Positions 1 through 5,497 of a stretch of 5,497 nt of DNA are shown one piece after another. The notes under the pieces are model-generated. The model saw nothing but the letters and a program-made list of their open reading frames with translations, was not told where the DNA came from and made no database searches. This stretch comes from a virus: the IMG/VR virus record IMGVR_UViG_3300045988_072726, positions 1-5,497 of that record; one strand, written 5' to 3'. Every line of letters begins with the position of its first letter. Positions within the stretch are counted from its first letter, which is position 1. Both the position numbers and the translations under genes were made by a program.

Positions 1-55
1 TCAAAGACATGATAAAAGCCGGAATAAATCCAATACTAGCAGCACAGTTAGGTGC
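1..55. repeat. 55-nt terminal redundancy, identical to 5443..5497. This is circular-genome closure, not a biological repeat.
   Basis: Direct base-by-base comparison: tcaaagacatgataaaagccggaataaatccaatactagcagcacagttaggtgc occurs at both ends of the window. A single ORF (VP2) reads through the junction in frame. Confidence 0.9.
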
Positions 56-290
56 AACCGGCCTATCAGGTGGAAGCATGGCAAGCGCAGGACTGGCAAG
101 CGGAGCAATGGCCAGCGGACACACCGCACAAATGCAACAGCAAACCGTACCGGATATCATCCGAAAAATCGGTTACGCCATAACAACGGCAAAAGAAGCA
201 GCGAAAGGATTGGAGGGATACACAAAAGAACTAGCTAACGAGAAACTGAACAAATACGCGAAACAGGCAATTGGAAACCTGAAAGGCTAA
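1..290 (+). CDS. VP2: VP2 minor capsid / DNA pilot protein, C-terminal part. It continues the ORF that begins at 5121 and crosses the circular junction; the unique CDS is 5121..5442 plus 1..290, about 203 aa.
   Basis: The reading frame is continuous with 5121..5497 because the 5442-nt unit length is divisible by 3 and position 9 corresponds to 5451 in the same frame. The region translates to a Gly/Ala/Ser-rich stretch (GATGLSGGSMASAGLASGAMASGHTAQMQQQ) followed by a C-terminus ending at TAA 288-290. It sits immediately downstream of VP1, as in gokushoviruses. Confidence 0.8.
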   Translation, partial: KDMIKAGINPILAAQLGATGLSGGSMASAGLASGAMASGHTAQMQQQTVPDIIRKIGYAITTAKEAAKGLEGYTKELANEKLNKYAKQAIGNLKG

Positions 291-296
291 ATTTTT

Positions 297-360
297 GTGT
301 CAGTCAGCCCCATTGTAACAAGGAGGCAATGGGGCTGACTGACCGGCCGCACGGCGGCCG
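297..360 (+). promoter_or_regulatory. Tandem perfect stem-loops in the VP2-VP4 intergenic region. The first has a 17-bp stem (299-315 paired with 327-343) and an 11-nt loop containing AAGGAGG. The second has a 7-bp GC stem (344-350 paired with 354-360). They are candidate terminators or ssDNA secondary-structure elements.
   Basis: gtcagtcagccccattg (299-315) is the exact reverse complement of caatggggctgactgac (327-343). cggccgc (344-350) is the reverse complement of gcggccg (354-360). The structure sits between the VP2 stop (290) and the VP4 SD (365-372). Confidence 0.6.
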
Positions 361-380
361 AGAGAAAGGAGGTGAAAACA

Positions 381-1412
381 TTGCCATGTTATCATCCTTT
401 GCGGCGCTGGTGGTGGGGTGAAACCGACCAAGACGGGAAGCAAATCAACGCCAAAATTACAGGCTGGGAAGTTGATACACTATTCGAAAGGCCGGTAGGC
501 TTTGGAAAACTTCGCGGGAACTGGTCAGCGGAAGAATGGAGCGAGGAAATACCATGCGGAAAATGCATCGGATGCAGACTAGAATACAGCCGACAATGGG
601 CAAACCGCTGTATGCTTGAAGCGCAAGAATGGCCGGAAAACTGGTTTATAACACTAACCTACGACGATGCACATTTACCATTCAAAGAACGCATAAACAC
701 CAAAACCGGGGAAATGACGGAGGAATTCACGCCGTCATTATATCCGCCAGACATAACAAAATTTATGAAAGACCTCCGGCGATACTGGGAATACCACTAC
801 GGAGAGCAAAACATAAGGTTTTACGCATGCGGGGAATACGGAAGCCACACAGCAAGACCACACTACCACATAATAGCATTTAACCTAAAACTACACGACC
901 TACAACCATGCGGACGAAGCAAAAGCGGGAAAATGCAATGGGACAGTCCAGCAATCCGAAAAATATGGGGTAGAGGACTAACAGCACTAGGACATGTAGA
1001 ATATGATTCATGTGCATATGTCGCAAGATATATGCTGAAAAAACAGAAAGGAGAGAACGCAAAAAAATACTACGCAGAAATGGGACTCGAACCAGAATTT
1101 ACAAGAAGCAGCCGCCGGCCGGGCATTGCAGCAGGATATTTTGAGCGCAACAAGGAAAAAATATATCATTATGATGAAATCGTGTTACCGGGGAATAAAG
1201 TGATAAGACCTCCAAAATACTACGATAAGTTATACGATATAGAAAATCCGAAAGAACTTGAAACAATAAAAAGTGCGCGCAAAGCGGCGGCAAAAGAAGC
1301 AGAAAAGATAGAGCTTGCAAAAACAACACTAACAAAGGGTGAATTACTAGCACTCAAAGAACGAACTGCAAAAGAAAAAATGAAGAAACTTCCTCGAGAG
1401 CTTAACGAATAA
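381..1412 (+). CDS. VP4: VP4 replication initiation protein, a rolling-circle HUH endonuclease that is the gokushovirus analog of phiX174 gene A. The probable start is TTG 381; the ORF track begins at GTG 372.
   Basis: Contains the conserved PCGKCIGCR cysteine motif. Rolling-circle motif 1 is FITLTYDD (~645-668), the HUH motif is PHYHIIAFN (~861-887), and the catalytic two-tyrosine motif is YVARYMLKK (~1017-1043; compare phiX A protein YVAKYVNKK). The SD AAAGGAGGTG (365-374) is 6-8 nt upstream of TTG 381, whereas GTG 372 lies inside the SD itself. Confidence 0.9.
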   Translation: MPCYHPLRRWWWGETDQDGKQINAKITGWEVDTLFERPVGFGKLRGNWSAEEWSEEIPCGKCIGCRLEYSRQWANRCMLEAQEWPENWFITLTYDDAHLPFKERINTKTGEMTEEFTPSLYPPDITKFMKDLRRYWEYHYGEQNIRFYACGEYGSHTARPHYHIIAFNLKLHDLQPCGRSKSGKMQWDSPAIRKIWGRGLTALGHVEYDSCAYVARYMLKKQKGENAKKYYAEMGLEPEFTRSSRRPGIAAGYFERNKEKIYHYDEIVLPGNKVIRPPKYYDKLYDIENPKELETIKSARKAAAKEAEKIELAKTTLTKGELLALKERTAKEKMKKLPRELNE

Positions 1413-1418
1413 CCAAAC

Positions 1419-1458
1419 AAAGGGGGCAAGCCCCCTTTACCCCCCTGCAAAAGGGGGG
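1419..1458 (+). terminator. Two adjacent GC-rich hairpins immediately after the VP4 stop. One pairs aaagggggc with gcccccttt; the other pairs cccccc with gggggg across a tgcaaaa loop, followed by atttatttat. Likely an intrinsic terminator, possibly also a structured ssDNA element.
   Basis: 1419-1427 is the reverse complement of 1430-1438. 1440-1445 (cccccc) pairs with 1453-1458 (gggggg) with a 7-nt loop. A T/A-rich tract follows at 1459-1468. The element begins 7 nt downstream of TAA 1410-1412. Confidence 0.55.
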
Positions 1459-1503
1459 ATTTATTTATCCGGAGAAACATTATGCAAGATGTAAAAAAAT
1501 TTA

Positions 1504-1556
1504 CTGACACAATTGGTGAAATGCATATAGAAATACAAACAGAAAAATAGTATAAT
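1504..1556 (+). promoter_or_regulatory. Candidate sigma70-type promoter elements upstream of the 62-aa ORF. There is a perfect TATAAT at 1551-1556. An alternative pair is cTGACA (1504-1509) with TATAGA (1526-1531) at a 16-nt spacing.
   Basis: Hexamer matches were read directly from the sequence in the AT-rich 1459-1581 intergenic segment, and SD GGAG 1570-1573 precedes ATG 1582. The -35 partner for the TATAAT (tagaaa, 1528-1533) is weak. Confidence 0.35.
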
Positions 1557-1581
1557 AAGACCATAGAAAGGAGATAAAAAC

Positions 1582-1770
1582 ATGAAAATACAAAACACCG
1601 CATTCAAAAACAAAACAAACAGAGACATGGCCTACAAAGAATTAAAAGAACACAAAATCCGCTGCGATACCTACAACATAAAAGATGGGTATTATTATGT
1701 AGCATGGTGTCCCTACAACAAAGAGCAATATCAAAAAGCAGTAAAAATAGTGGAAAGCCACTTGGACTAA
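1582..1770 (+). CDS. Hypothetical 62-aa protein, an orphan small ORF. It has no recognisable family, contains two Cys, and is Lys/Tyr-rich.
   Basis: ATG is preceded by AAAGGAG (1567-1573). The ORF is in the same orientation as all other genes and fills the VP4-to-VP5-region gap, with a candidate promoter upstream. Confidence 0.5.
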   Translation: MKIQNTAFKNKTNRDMAYKELKEHKIRCDTYNIKDGYYYVAWCPYNKEQYQKAVKIVESHLD

Positions 1771-1788
1771 ATGAAAGGGGGTGAAAAA

Positions 1789-1902
1789 ATGACGAACCTA
1801 AACAGCGTAAGAAAAGACAAAAAGGTATTCAAAGAAACCGCAGCAAAAACCAAAAGAATCAACATCGCGCCCAAAGTAATGCGCGGCGGCATCAGACTGT
1901 AA
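1789..1902 (+). CDS. Small, highly basic 37-aa peptide (MTNLNSVRKDKKVFKETAAKTKRINIAPKVMRGGIRL). Candidate ssDNA-binding/packaging protein, like gokushovirus ORF8 or phiX174 J.
   Basis: It is not in the supplied ORF track because it is below the size cutoff. ATG 1789 is preceded by GGGGGTG (1777-1783), and the ORF ends at TAA 1900-1902. 11 of its 37 residues are K or R. Its position, between the rep gene and the scaffold/capsid genes, matches small basic J-like ORFs in other Microviridae. Confidence 0.5.
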   Translation: MTNLNSVRKDKKVFKETAAKTKRINIAPKVMRGGIRL

Positions 1903-1927
1903 ACAAAACAAAAAAGGAGAAAAAACG

Positions 1928-2185
1928 ATGAAAACCAACATTTACGCATTCAAAGACACGAAAATAGGCTTTATGCAGCCATTCCTCCAGCAGAACGAAG
2001 CAGTTGCCATGCGAACCTTAAAAATGGCCGTGAACGATGAACACAGCCAGATTAGAAACATGGCAGAAGATATCCAGCTTTATCAGCTGGGAACCTTTAA
2101 CGATGATACCGGCGAAATCAAACCGGAAGTAAAATTTATAGCAAACGCCATCGACCACAAAGAGGAAAAGAACAATGGAAATTAA
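1928..2185 (+). CDS. Hypothetical 85-aa acidic protein. Positionally it is a VP5-like (phiX C analog) candidate.
   Basis: AGGAG (1915-1919) lies 8 nt upstream of ATG 1928. It is on the same strand as the other genes. No motif I can assign. Confidence 0.5.
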   Translation: MKTNIYAFKDTKIGFMQPFLQQNEAVAMRTLKMAVNDEHSQIRNMAEDIQLYQLGTFNDDTGEIKPEVKFIANAIDHKEEKNNGN

Positions 2186-2348
2186 CGAACTGGTAAACAT
2201 CATCGGGACAATCGGTTTTCCGTGTGTAATTGCGCTGCTGCTCCTGAAAAACAATCAGGAGCAAGCAACCATCATACGAGAAAACACCAAAGTAATTCAG
2301 GCATTAGCCGACCGAATCGACAATGTGCTATCAAAAGGAGAAGAATAA
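2175..2348 (+). CDS. Putative holin, 57 aa, with a single N-terminal transmembrane helix and a charged C-terminal tail. BhlA/UviB-like topology.
   Basis: Translation is MEINELVNIIGTIGFPCVIALLLLKNNQEQATIIRENTKVIQALADRIDNVLSKGEE. It has one ~19-residue hydrophobic segment followed by a polar, coiled-coil-like tail. ATG 2175 follows GAGGAAAAG (2162-2170), and its stop TAA 2346-2348 abuts the amidase ATG 2349. It is not in the ORF track (under 60 aa). Confidence 0.5.
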   Translation: MEINELVNIIGTIGFPCVIALLLLKNNQEQATIIRENTKVIQALADRIDNVLSKGEE

Positions 2349-2957
2349 ATGAAGCTGCACACACGAATAGCATACAAAAATGCATGCTACCAAGAAGGAC
2401 AAAAGATGAAACCCAAGGGCATCATGATACACAGCACAGGATGCAACAATCCAAACCTACGAAGATATGTCGGGCCGGATGATGGAATCCTCGGAAAAAA
2501 CATCTACAAAAACCATTGGAACAACGCCTATCCGGGCGGGAAAGCAATATGCTGCCACGCATTCATAGGCAAAGACAAAAACGGAGAAATCCGAACCTAC
2601 AAAATATTACCATGGGATATGGTGGGCTGGCATTGTGGAGGAAAAGCAAACAAAACGCACATCGGCATCGAAATCTGCGAAGACCATCCAAACACAGAAC
2701 ACTACCGGGAAACATTCCGGGAAGCCGTAGAAGTAGCGGCATACTTATGCAGAGTATACCAAATCCAGCCGAAAAACATAATCAGCCACAAAGAGGGCCA
2801 CGCAAAAGGCATCGCAAGCAACCACGGAGATCCGGAACATTGGTGGATGAACTACGGTGTAACAATGGATCACTTCAGAACGGAAGTAGCAAAAGAACTC
2901 GACAGACACAAAAGCTATAACATGATGATATACGATGAGAAAGGGGAAAACACATGA
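2349..2957 (+). CDS. N-acetylmuramoyl-L-alanine amidase, Amidase_2/PGRP family (T7 lysozyme-like endolysin), 202 aa.
   Basis: Motifs align with T7 lysozyme: IMIHSTGCNNP matches IFVHCSATKP (Zn-ligand His). AICCHAFIGKDKNGEI matches GYHFIIKRDGTVE. WHCGGKANKTHIGIEIC matches GSHAKGYNHNSIGVCLVG. ISHKEGHAKGIASNHGDPEHWW matches AHHEVAPKACPSFDLKRWW. AAGGAG (2333-2338) lies upstream, and the stop overlaps the VP3 start (ATGA 2954-2957). Confidence 0.8.
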   Translation: MKLHTRIAYKNACYQEGQKMKPKGIMIHSTGCNNPNLRRYVGPDDGILGKNIYKNHWNNAYPGGKAICCHAFIGKDKNGEIRTYKILPWDMVGWHCGGKANKTHIGIEICEDHPNTEHYRETFREAVEVAAYLCRVYQIQPKNIISHKEGHAKGIASNHGDPEHWWMNYGVTMDHFRTEVAKELDRHKSYNMMIYDEKGENT

Positions 2958-3451
2958 ACTTTTACAGCCGGATTAACCCGGCGCCGGTAATCGAAGCGCC
3001 GGCCGGAAGCAAAGAAGCAACAACCTATCAAACACAAATAGACGAGAACGGCCACAAAGTAACGGTACCGACCGGAAAAACCAACATCTACGACCGCATT
3101 CAAAGCAGCCTTGAGGAAACCAAAATTGAAAACATCATCAAACGATTTACGGAAGGTGATATCTCGGCATTCAGACAGGGCGAACCGCTGTATGCAGACA
3201 TGACCGAAGCACCACGAACACTGATGGAAGCGCAGAACATGATAATCCGCATTACAAACGAATTCAACGAACTGCCAGTAGAGATAAGAGCAAAATTTGA
3301 CCACAGCCCGGAAAAATATGTTGCACTGTACGGCGGCGAAGCATGGGCGAAGGCAGTGGGCTATGAAATCAAAAAAGCCGACACAGGCGAAATTCAGGGC
3401 GCTGGCGATACCAGCACAGAACCTATTCCGGAACAGGAGGAGAAAGCATGA
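2954..3451 (+). CDS. VP3: VP3 internal scaffolding protein (analog of phiX174 B), 165 aa.
   Basis: It lies immediately upstream of, and translationally coupled to, VP1 (ATGA 3448-3451). The composition is acidic (EPIPEQEEKA tail). The sequence features IYDRIQSSLEE...NELPVEIRAKFDHSPEKYV are typical of gokushovirus VP3. Confidence 0.75.
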   Translation: MNFYSRINPAPVIEAPAGSKEATTYQTQIDENGHKVTVPTGKTNIYDRIQSSLEETKIENIIKRFTEGDISAFRQGEPLYADMTEAPRTLMEAQNMIIRITNEFNELPVEIRAKFDHSPEKYVALYGGEAWAKAVGYEIKKADTGEIQGAGDTSTEPIPEQEEKA

Positions 3452-5106
3452 ACAGAAACACCGAAAGCCATTTTTCAGTAAATCCGATAAACCTTGATAT
3501 CCAGCGAAGTAAATTCGTTAGACCATCGACACACAAAACCACATTCAACGCAGGAAACCTAATTCCAATTTATGTTGATGAAGTACTCCCGGGCGATACA
3601 TTCAAAATGAACATGAGCAGTGTAATTCGTATGAGCACGCCAATCTATCCGGTAATGGATAACGCCAACATGGATGTATACTTCTTCTTCGTACCTAACC
3701 GCCTAGTGTGGGAGCACTGGAAAGAGTTTTTCGGAGAAAACAACACGACACACTGGGAGCAACCAGTCGAATACGAGGTACCACAAATCACAGCACCGGC
3801 GGGAGGATGGGCAAAAGGAACAATCGCCGACTATATGGGCATTCCGACGCTCATTAGTAATATCAGCGTGCAAGCACTGCCTTTCAGGGCATACTGTAAA
3901 ATATGGAATGACTGGTTCCGCGACCAGAACTTAAAAGACCCGGCTATGATAAGCCTTGACGAAACAACCACGGCCGGAGCCAACACCGGGGACTATGTAA
4001 CCAACGCAGAAAAGGGAGCGCTACCGCTTAAAGTAGCAAAATACCATGACTATTTCACAGCGGCATTACCGGAACCGCAAAAAGGGCCGGAAGTCACAAT
4101 CGGCGGCGTAGGCGGCTACATGCCTGTAATTACAAGGGATGAACTTGTAACCGACACAGAAAAAAACATGAAGTGGTACACACCGGGCAACACCACAGCA
4201 ACCAATTATGCACTTGGATATACGAGCCAAGTAAATGCAAGAGGAGCAAACGACATAAAAACGGCCGTATACGGAAGCGGATTCGTAAACCAAAATCCAA
4301 TAGCACCGGCTAACCTTTGGGCAGATATGACCGTAGGAACAGCTACCAGCATTAACGCACTGCGGCAGGCGTTTGCAATTCAACGATTGTACGAGAAGAA
4401 CGCACGAGGCGGAACAAGGTACATCGAAATCATAAAGGCGCATTTTGGGGTACAATCACCGGATGCAAGGCAGCAACGAAGTGAATACCTCGGCGGAACT
4501 CGCGTACCCATCAACATGGACCAAGTAGTACAGACATCCAACACGGCCGAGGGCAGCACACCGCAGGGTAACACGGCTGCATACTCTCTGACGGCATTCA
4601 ATGAAAGCATGTTCACAAAATCGTTTACCGAACACGGATACATTATCGGCCTTGCATGCATCAGAACGGAACACACATACCAGCAGGGCATAGAACGGTT
4701 TTGGAGCCGAAAAAAGATGCTGGACTATTATTTCCCGACATTGGCAAACCTCGGAGAACAGGCCATCCTTAACAAAGAAATCTATGCACAAGGGAGCACA
4801 ACAGACGATGAAGCATTCGGGTACCAAGAAGCATGGGCAGAATACCGATACAAGCCGAGCCGAGTATCGGGAGCAATGCGAAGCAACTACCAAACCACAC
4901 TGGACGCATGGCACTATGCAGACAAATACACAAGCCAGCCGATTTTATCAAGCGAATGGATTGATGAAACAAGCGCCAACATTGATAGAACACTGGCCGT
5001 ACAAAGCGCCACCGAAGACCAATTCATAGCAGACTTTTATTTTGCCTGCGAAGCAACAAGACCAATGCCGCTATACAGCATTCCGGGCCTGATTGACCAT
5101 CACTAA
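3448..5106 (+). CDS. VP1: VP1 major capsid protein (Microviridae F-protein fold), 552 aa.
   Basis: The N-terminus MNRNTESHFSVNPINLDIQRSKFVRPSTHKTTFNAGNLIPIYVDEVLPGDTFK carries the canonical gokushovirus VP1 signature (HFS...RS.F...HKTTF.AG.L.P...LPGD.F). It is the longest ORF. GGAGGAG (3436-3442) is upstream, and TAA falls at 5104-5106. Confidence 0.95.
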   Translation: MNRNTESHFSVNPINLDIQRSKFVRPSTHKTTFNAGNLIPIYVDEVLPGDTFKMNMSSVIRMSTPIYPVMDNANMDVYFFFVPNRLVWEHWKEFFGENNTTHWEQPVEYEVPQITAPAGGWAKGTIADYMGIPTLISNISVQALPFRAYCKIWNDWFRDQNLKDPAMISLDETTTAGANTGDYVTNAEKGALPLKVAKYHDYFTAALPEPQKGPEVTIGGVGGYMPVITRDELVTDTEKNMKWYTPGNTTATNYALGYTSQVNARGANDIKTAVYGSGFVNQNPIAPANLWADMTVGTATSINALRQAFAIQRLYEKNARGGTRYIEIIKAHFGVQSPDARQQRSEYLGGTRVPINMDQVVQTSNTAEGSTPQGNTAAYSLTAFNESMFTKSFTEHGYIIGLACIRTEHTYQQGIERFWSRKKMLDYYFPTLANLGEQAILNKEIYAQGSTTDDEAFGYQEAWAEYRYKPSRVSGAMRSNYQTTLDAWHYADKYTSQPILSSEWIDETSANIDRTLAVQSATEDQFIADFYFACEATRPMPLYSIPGLIDHH

Positions 5107-5120
5107 AGGAGGGGCAAACA

Positions 5121-5497
5121 ATGGCAGGAAGTAGGGGCCGAAACCTATTCGGACGAGACAAAAACCTCTATCAAGCCGGACAAAAAGCAGTAAATGCAGC
5201 AATAACCGGATTAGGGCTAGCACTCAACCCAATAGGAAACACCACAGCAACAGCCGAAGCAGCATTCAACAAAAGCCAAATGAGCGCAAAACAAGCAATG
5301 GCATTCGAAGCCAGCCAAGCAGCGCAACAAATGGCATTCCAGCGGGAAATGCTACAAAACCAAATGCGTTTCAACAGCGCAGAAGCTGAAACCAACAGAG
5401 CATGGCAAAGACAAATGAGACAAACAGCATACCAAGACACAGTCAAAGACATGATAAAAGCCGGAATAAATCCAATACTAGCAGCACAGTTAGGTGC
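5121..5497 (+). CDS. VP2: VP2 minor capsid / DNA pilot protein, N-terminal part. The ORF runs off the window end and continues at 1..290 through the circular junction.
   Basis: ATG 5121 is preceded by AAAGGAGGGG (5106-5115). No stop occurs before the window end. The translation MAGSRGRNLFGRDKNLYQAGQKAVNAAITGLGLALNPIGN...QMAFQREMLQNQMRFNSAEAETNRAWQRQMRQTAYQDTVKDMIKAGINPILAAQ carries the conserved gokushovirus VP2 motif (QxxFNxxEA...WQ..M..TAYQ....D...AG.NP.L). Confidence 0.85.
   Translation, partial: MAGSRGRNLFGRDKNLYQAGQKAVNAAITGLGLALNPIGNTTATAEAAFNKSQMSAKQAMAFEASQAAQQMAFQREMLQNQMRFNSAEAETNRAWQRQMRQTAYQDTVKDMIKAGINPILAAQLG

Follow-up and report, generated by a model that had tools for sequence, protein, structure and literature searches.

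Organization of the VP2-VP4 spacer

The window analysed here is a viral DNA of 5,497 nucleotides (nt), positions 1 to 5,497 of the IMG/VR record IMGVR_UViG_3300045988_072726, and the element in question is a long hairpin between its VP2 and VP4 genes, considered below as a candidate replication origin that lies inverted relative to the genes. The last 55 bases (5443-5497) are an exact repeat of the first 55 (1-55). Such terminal redundancy is typical of circular assemblies; the window accordingly represents a whole circular genome, 5,442 nt in length. It is the genome of a gut gokushovirus (Gokushovirinae), with the gene order VP4/Rep (381-1412), VP5, an Amidase_2 gene, VP3, VP1, and VP2 (5121, wrapping around to 290). 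The closest records are Microviridae from pig and human gut, at about 85% nucleotide identity. Members of the Microviridae, described as positive-sense single-stranded DNA (ssDNA) phages, are among the most abundant phages of the gut, and to our knowledge their replication origin is essentially uncharacterised outside the phiX174 group.

The stop codon of VP2 is at 288-290. The spacer between VP2 and VP4 is 90 nt long and holds two hairpins, which are followed by the translation signals of VP4:

299-315, plus-strand numbering: 5' arm of the 17-base-pair (bp) stem of hairpin 1, GTCAGTCAGCCCCATTG, complementary to the 3' arm at 17/17 positions
316-326, plus strand: loop of hairpin 1, 11 nt, TAACAAGGAGG (taacaaggagg); the minus strand reads CCTCCTTGTTA, that is, CCTCCTTG|TTA, where the bar is the predicted nick
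327-343, plus-strand numbering: 3' arm of the 17-bp stem, CAATGGGGCTGACTGAC, complementary to the 5' arm at 17/17 positions
344-360: hairpin 2, CGGCCGC-acg-GCGGCCG, 7 bp, abutting hairpin 1 without a gap
365-383, plus strand: ribosome-binding site of VP4, AAAGGAGGTG (365-374; GGAGG at 368-372), and TTG start codon (381-383)
381-1412, plus strand: VP4, the rolling-circle Rep (PF23343, E=4e-19), with the motifs FITLTY, HYH, and YVARY

No other inverted repeat in the genome approaches hairpin 1 in length, the next longest being 9-11 bp. An earlier note, made from the sequence alone, had described a perfect 17-bp hairpin and an abutting GC hairpin upstream of the rep gene, and the sequence confirms both (299-343 and 344-360). 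It had also proposed folding of this region as DNA and as RNA. When 285-385 was folded, both hairpins formed, and the predicted folds were far better than those of shuffled sequences. As DNA, the plus strand gave -30.7 kcal/mol (z=-7.0; matched by 0/200 shuffles) and the minus strand -30.7 kcal/mol (z=-7.7); as RNA, the value was -50.9 kcal/mol (z=-5.9). The Rfam search of 290-380 gave no match at E up to 5, a search in which DNA complementary-strand origins are not represented as families; weak sub-threshold matches were confined to other parts of the window, including several in the second spacer.

Conservation of the hairpin among gokushoviruses

Loci with VP4 homologs were collected from viral contigs, genomes, and metagenomes, and 219 of them were usable. 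In most of these loci, the best hairpin near VP4 has a loop with CTACTTGAT, ACTTG, or TCTTGTT on the coding strand. The architecture is anchored on CTTG: one arm, yCTACTTG-ATGTAA, the other arm, and then (C/G)TGACAC(C/A)A. The loop motif of the family can be written as YCTTG(A/T)T, with a CTTG(A/T)(T/C) core whose CTTG (C25 T26 T27 G28) is invariant in the alignments A2 and A3. The TGACA of the flank (T45 G46 A47 C48 A49), which is located 17-18 nt past CTTG, is invariant or at least 90% conserved in all classes. About 150-170 of the 219 gokushovirus loci share this architecture, and the cassette is also seen in cultured phages, at 2904-2941 in Chp2, 512-544 in SpV4, and 3296-3335 in phiMH2K. 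A hairpin of the origin type was found in 155/219 loci, compared with 15-25/219 after shuffling, which served as an independent null.

The stem arms diverge widely in sequence across the family yet remain paired. In the 17-pair helix of 76 relatives, 217 double-sided compensatory cells were counted, compared with 79±8 in the shuffled controls (0/500). The covariation score was 0.423, compared with 0.157 for shuffled alignments and 0.08-0.17 for slid controls, and RNAalifold detected compensatory changes at 7/7 pairs. A covariation test had been suggested in the earlier note; its outcome is that compensatory changes have preserved the stem throughout the subfamily.

The same is seen at closer range. 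Nine genomes of the window clade were examined, and hairpin 1 is retained even where the neighbouring C-terminus of VP2 has diverged. In L004 and L006, which are more distant members of the clade, the stem carries a compensatory change from A-T to C-G. It should be mentioned that the GenBank record of one locus (L001, MG945319.1; 1-1083 and 5176-5213) is linearised within the hairpin loop. The "similar to VP4" feature of this record begins at the ATG in the 3' arm of the hairpin and is an annotation artefact. A scan of viral contigs for the exact sequence CCCCATTGTAACAAGGAG gave one unrelated contig of 19.6 kilobases (kb) (L012), in which the match is in a coding region and has no hairpin; this match was set aside as chance.

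Inverted orientation of the cassette

A covariance model, R1, was based on the alignment A3, which consists of 58 coding-strand copies only, including those of Chp2, SpV4, and phiMH2K. R1 matches the minus strand of the window over its full length at 291-346, with 52.6 bits and E=1.1e-11. On the plus strand it gave 18.6 bits in a partial match, via the palindromic stem. Two features are thereby placed on the minus strand:

291-346, minus strand: whole origin-type cassette matched by R1, 5'-..GTCAGTCAGCCCCATTG CCTCCTTGTTA CAATGGGGCTGACTGAC ACAAAAAT-3'
303-291, minus strand: asymmetric flank box, CTGACACAAAAAT, located 3' of the hairpin in the motif sense and overlapping the base of the stem

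On this strand, TGACAC lies 18 nt after CTTG (CTGACTGACACAAAAAT, window 307-291). The minus-strand location of the flank box shows that the inversion relative to the genes affects the cassette as a whole and not the loop alone. This inversion was missed in the earlier note. The window thus has a stem longer than the 9 bp required of the cassette, a loop with the CTTG core, and the TGACAC box at the spacing of the family, on the strand complementary to the genes.

Orientation was called with a profile made from plus-orientation copies only, and the results of the covariance model agree with these calls. The profile matched in 173 of the 219 loci, 145 times on the coding strand and 28 times on the complementary strand (the window and 27 others). 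In other words, Chp2, SpV4, phiMH2K, and about 145 uncultured gokushoviruses have the same cassette and fit the same model, but in them it is on the coding strand, whereas the window and the 27 other loci carry it on the complementary strand. The profile and covariance-model calls replaced calls based on regular expressions, which had given false positives such as L054, L074, L083, L197, L080, L183, L202, and L215. In two minus-orientation loci, L149 (2943-2979; ..GCTCGATAT) and L152 (63-100; ..TCTCGTTGTAA), the loop has CTCG in place of CTTG. This means that the second T of the core is not absolutely required.

The orientation bears on the meaning of the loop in the mRNA sense. The earlier note had regarded AAGGAGG in this loop as a sequestered motif of the Shine-Dalgarno (SD) type, which might act as a decoy for the true SD of VP4. 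Because the cassette reads on the minus strand, AAGGAGG rather represents the complement of the pyrimidine tract preceding the predicted nick, and at the corresponding tract the plus-orientation relatives show CCTTG or CTCTTG. The decoy reading is contradicted both by this reverse-complement relationship and by the relatives, most of which have CUACUUGAUG as the mRNA-sense loop, without any SD-like sequence. The motif is not sequestered either, being unpaired in the loop. The in-stem ATG at 329 does exist; its proposed regulatory use does not hold, since it lies only 2 nt after GGAGG and the length of its open reading frame (ORF) is not conserved in relatives.

More generally, the hairpins might act in mRNA as a terminator, an attenuator, or a 3'-end stabiliser after VP2, or as a decoy or sequestered SD modulating VP4. 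The very stable RNA fold and the location directly upstream of the VP4 SD would suit such a role, and hairpin 2 keeps its position next to VP4 in both orientations of the cassette, so that a part of the element may act in expression. However, the hairpins are followed by CGGCC.. and AGAGAAAGG, without a U-run, and the T-run of this region sits 5' of hairpin 1. A T-run follows neither hairpin in the DNA, the terminator scan does not list 299-360, and the promoter and terminator scans called nothing at the hairpin element; these results speak against the terminator after VP2 that the earlier note had considered. The unpaired AAGGAGG, the ATG only 2 nt away, and the small, non-conserved ORF count against an effect on translation. 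In addition, neither the asymmetry of the flank box nor the orientation-linked composition described below is explained at the RNA level. A role in mRNA is therefore considered very unlikely. What stands of the functions first proposed is a conserved, structured element tied to replication, whereas the terminator and the SD decoy are not supported. A promoter reading of the cassette (TTGATG ... TGnCACAAT) was also rejected: most lineages have CACCAA in place of the -10-like part, and in the window clade the cassette faces away from the genes.

Orientation and strand composition

The coding strand of the whole window contains 38.3% A and 16.2% T, and at its four-fold sites A=286 and T=47. For ssDNA phages a bias to NNT codons has been reported and explained by deamination of C to T in the single strand (PMC3278643); the coding strand of the window shows the opposite, being A-rich and T-poor. 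To compare loci, the AT skew at four-fold sites was computed on the coding strand of VP1+VP4. In 144 plus-orientation loci the mean skew was -0.39, with 17% of the values above 0 and 6% above 0.2. In 27 minus-orientation loci the mean was +0.54 and the minimum +0.23, so that all values were above 0 (Mann-Whitney, p=6e-16).

The synonymous composition is mirrored between the two orientation classes:

Four-fold sites, A/C/G/T: plus orientation.21/.17/.15/.47; minus orientation.54/.14/.14/.17
Two-fold NNY sites, T/(T+C): plus orientation.69; minus orientation.44
Two-fold NNR sites, A/(A+G): plus orientation.53; minus orientation.78

Mirror-image composition is also seen within the Clostridia-associated clade alone (14 plus vs 17 minus). 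The GC skew did not differ between the orientation classes (-0.06 vs -0.05) and is uninformative. The mirrored composition fits C-to-T pressure on the strand bearing the nick motif.

A VP4 tree of 104 taxa requires a minimum of four orientation switches: one in the large clade that includes the window, and one each for L090, the L093/94/96 group, and L102. At each switch, the sign of the skew is as expected relative to the nearest plus-orientation neighbour. An earlier neighbour-joining tree of 75 taxa, with 5-6 or more switches, was dropped in favour of this larger trimmed tree. Eight loci combine a coding-strand cassette with A>T (+0.2 to +0.6), namely L142 (phiMH2K, 3296-3335), L036, L051, L061, L085, L125, L165, and L179. 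These exceptions may be recent switches or may reflect another pressure.

The origin might be correctly located while the polarity of the packaged strand is unchanged. In that case the cassette would work either way, or a plus-strand origin would have escaped detection, and the A-richness would come from a codon or purine preference of the host. The A>T of phiMH2K and seven other plus-orientation genomes at four-fold sites is in keeping with this, as are the small number of independent switches (only about four) and a second TGACAC box on the plus strand of the window clade, at 1501-1514. However, HUH nucleases cut one specific strand, and the second box has no CTTG motif or hairpin with it. 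Moreover, the mirror-image differences at four-fold, NNY, and NNR sites occur within one Clostridia-associated clade and are not predicted by host preference. An unchanged polarity thus appears doubtful, though it deserves more weight than the other alternatives.

Comparison with known origins

The origin of phiX174 was experimentally defined and is annotated in RefSeq at G4305|A4306 within CAACTTG|ATATTAATAAC. Its AACTTG|ATA resembles the YCTTG|(A/T)T of the gokushoviruses. The Rep proteins are also alike in having an HUH motif and two tyrosines three residues apart, which in the phiX174 A protein form the Y343/Y347 motif. VP4 of the window is a superfamily-I HUH Rep with catalytic tyrosines, and its H161, H163, Y213, and Y217 are invariant among 26 homologs. 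The two origins differ in their setting. That of phiX174 is inside gene A, without a hairpin, and on the coding strand, whereas in the window the motif occupies an 11-nt loop closed by a 17-bp stem, within a spacer, accompanied by a TGACAC box, and on the non-coding strand.

A second likeness is to the plasmids pC194 and pUB110, whose Rep_1-type protein uses one Tyr plus a Glu. The pC194/pUB110 ori contains ...TCTTGATA (PMC5031790), and ...TTCTTATCTTGATA is given for the origins of this family (PMC5031790; sequences in PMC7072734). As in the gokushovirus cassette, a pyrimidine tract is followed by CTTGAT. These are origins of Firmicutes plasmids, however, with no TGACAC box and no packaging into capsids.

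Rolling-circle replicons are usually built with the nick site of an HUH nuclease exposed in a hairpin loop that adjoins rep. This design is found in the CRESS-DNA viruses, in which the nick site of the HUH Rep (a nonanucleotide) is in a stem-loop beside rep; these viruses differ in having a Rep fused to an SF3 helicase, another nick motif, and eukaryotic hosts. Placement of the origin relative to the coding regions differs between Circovirus and Cyclovirus according to the ICTV Circoviridae profile, and the anelloviruses are referred to as negative-sense circular ssDNA viruses in PMC13065334. Variation in polarity within the Microviridae was not described in the literature searched.

Proposed function of hairpin 1

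The cassette is read as a viral-strand origin because its loop core resembles the nick sites of phiX174 and pC194, because VP4 has the motifs of that class of Rep, and because the design is the usual one. It seems likely that hairpin 1, its loop, and the adjacent box together form the viral-strand (rolling-circle) origin, in inverted orientation; the strand encapsidated in this clade is probably the antisense one.

The palindrome would be extruded in the supercoiled DNA of the replicative form. VP4, as an HUH Rep, would then cut the loop of the strand reading CCTCCTTG|TTA, and rolling-circle synthesis would begin there. As judged from the sequence, this putative cleavage would separate the minus-strand nucleotides that pair with 319 and 318. 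The phiX174 Rep nicks the strand that is then displaced and packaged. By analogy, the nicked and displaced strand of the window would be fed into procapsids, and this would be the antisense strand, which is probably the one encapsidated. Packaging of the antisense strand is compatible with the life cycle, since the genes are expressed from the double-stranded replicative form.

Taken to the clade level, the window is an inverted variant of a subfamily-wide cassette of the origin type, which predicts negative-sense virions for a sizeable gut clade. On balance, we lean toward the view that this large gut (Clostridia-associated) clade is negative-sense and that polarity is labile, with at least four switches. 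Polarity would then be set by the orientation of a cassette of about 50 nt, and composition would re-equilibrate to the mirror image each time.

The same hairpin could instead be a complementary-strand origin, at which host primase, PriA, or RNA polymerase acts on the packaged strand, as at the n' site of phiX174, ori-c of G4, the minus origin of M13, or the sso of plasmids. A strong DNA hairpin within a non-coding spacer would suit this function, and such an origin is also strand-specific, so that it would account for the link between orientation and skew. Hairpins adjacent to rep have been discussed in this way for other microvirus clades, the reekeekee- and roodoodooviruses, whose intergenic hairpins likewise combine a conserved loop with arms that vary in a compensatory manner (PMC9865509, section 3.8). 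The function was left open there, with the authors leaning to negative-strand priming (PMC9865509); these clades are different from that of the window and are likened to it by description. Against this, the invariant part consists of CTTG(A/T)T and the TGACAC box, and the CTTG(A/T)T core matches the Rep nick sequence of phiX174 and pC194 and not a priming signature. The element is conserved although the hosts range from Chlamydia and Spiroplasma to Bdellovibrio and Clostridia, which fits a conserved viral Rep better than divergent host priming. We regard the complementary-strand origin offered by the earlier note as unlikely; a viral-strand origin is preferred, since the loop matches the phiX174/pC194 nick sequence and not a priming site.

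Several points weigh against the viral-strand origin and the antisense packaging proposed here. The literature searched contains no experiment in which any gokushovirus Rep cuts this loop, and it describes neither a gokushovirus origin hairpin nor negative-sense microviruses. The origin of phiX174 itself is without a hairpin and is not matched by R1. The nick dinucleotide of the window would be G|T, not G|A (CTTG followed by TTA, compared with CTTG|ATA); the CTTGTT variant is, however, also present in SpV4, phiMH2K, and several plus-orientation genomes, and it occurs in L020 and L121. The rows of the covariation analysis were picked for having a hairpin. As to composition, 8 of the 144 plus-orientation genomes, including the cultured phiMH2K, have an AT skew above 0.2, and the link between skew and orientation is backed phylogenetically by only about four independent switches. 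Finally, a strand-specific complementary-strand origin or packaging signal would yield the same link, although with a signal of either kind the packaged strand would be no different.

Hairpin 2 and other elements of the genome

Hairpin 2 behaves differently from hairpin 1. Its loop varies between ACG and ACA among close relatives, and in L004 and L006 it is swapped for an unrelated hairpin, CAAAATTGC-aaa-GCAATTTTG. It follows from this comparison of close relatives that hairpin 1 is kept in sequence and structure, and hairpin 2 in structure only. Many gut-clade genomes have a second hairpin of variable sequence, placed after the origin hairpin and before the VP4 SD, in either orientation of the origin. 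Hairpin 2 therefore seems to be tied to the position near VP4 rather than to the polarity of the origin. Possible roles are that of an mRNA or leader element and that of an aid to cruciform extrusion.

The start codon of VP4 is TTG in the window and also in L003 and L008; in most close relatives the same codon is ATG. In relatives this ATG start is followed by PCYHPL. The GTG at 372 in the list of the ORF finder falls within the VP4 SD.

A further copy of the flank box is located in the other spacer next to VP4:

1501-1514, plus strand: second flank-box copy, TTACTGACACAATT, in the VP4-VP5 spacer

This box is invariant in 10/10 genomes of the window clade and absent from the other minus-orientation lineages. 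A promoter-like TAGAAA-17-TATAAT (1528-1556) follows about 20 nt downstream. Neither a CTTG/nick motif nor a hairpin was found beside the box, and the adjacent ATGTAA is unique to the window; it was therefore rejected as an alternative plus-strand origin. The box might be a relic of one half of an origin, or else a second site for Rep binding or regulation.

Right after the stop codon of VP4, at 1413-1470, there are nested palindromes with G/C runs, AAAGGGGGC..GCCCCCTTT and CCCCCCTGCAAAAGGGGGG, followed by ATTTATTTAT. They look like a plus-strand terminator and are conserved in relatives; the weak Rfam matches in this region are probably due to chance. The Amidase_2 gene (2349-2957, plus strand; Pfam E=4e-17) encodes an N-acetylmuramoyl-L-alanine amidase. 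This is presumably a lysis enzyme, consistent with the Gram-positive (Clostridia) hosts suggested by related prophages.

Related prophages

Prophages related to the window occur in Clostridia (Christensenella, Oscillibacter sp. PC13, and others) between direct repeats spaced at about 5.2-5.4 kb:

L097: direct repeats at 4300-4330 and 9497-9527
L135: direct repeats at 3628-3670 and 8997-9039
L101: direct repeats at 3742-3817 and 9081-9156

The repeats of L097 and L135 are dif-like imperfect palindromes, AACTATTCGTAAAA-TACAAG-TTTTACGAATAGTT. Their sequence suggests integration of the Xer type, with the VP4|VP5 spacer as its site; Xer-type integration has been proposed for other prophages of microviruses as well. 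One contig of the Clostridia, 36 kb in length, contains two complete gokushovirus genomes in tandem (L107, 5160-14253; period about 5,173 nt), which are either a tandem prophage or a concatemer assembly.

These prophages bear on the possibility that hairpin 1 itself serves lysogeny, as an attP or dif-like site of attachment or recombination. Clostridia genomes contain, as prophages, relatives whose VP4 is 40-50% identical, and in L105, from the isolate Oscillibacter sp. PC13, the junction is between the hairpin and VP4. The prophage of L105 (8001-13029) is permuted, in the order VP4-VP5-VP3-VP1-VP2-origin hairpin. However, almost all prophages are arranged as VP5-VP3-VP1-VP2-hairpin-VP4 and have their junction at the VP4|VP5 spacer; L097, L099, L100, L101, L103, L106, L110, and L135 contain the hairpin internally. 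The palindrome flanking the prophages is a different, dif-like and imperfect one, AACTATTCGTAAAATACAAG.., and the hairpin is also present in strictly lytic cultured phages. It is thus highly unlikely that hairpin 1 serves as the attachment site.

Implications

If the viral-strand origin proposed here is correct, a model of sequence and structure would locate the origin in most gokushovirus genomes, and the packaged strand could flip in evolution. This would explain the strongly A-rich and T-poor coding strands of some microviruses, which run contrary to the typical NNT bias. In practice, it would bear on strand-specific protocols for virome libraries, on annotation (such as a VP4 start placed in the hairpin), and on the design of gokushovirus-based vectors. 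The orientation switches would also provide a natural experiment for strand-specific mutation pressure in ssDNA viruses.

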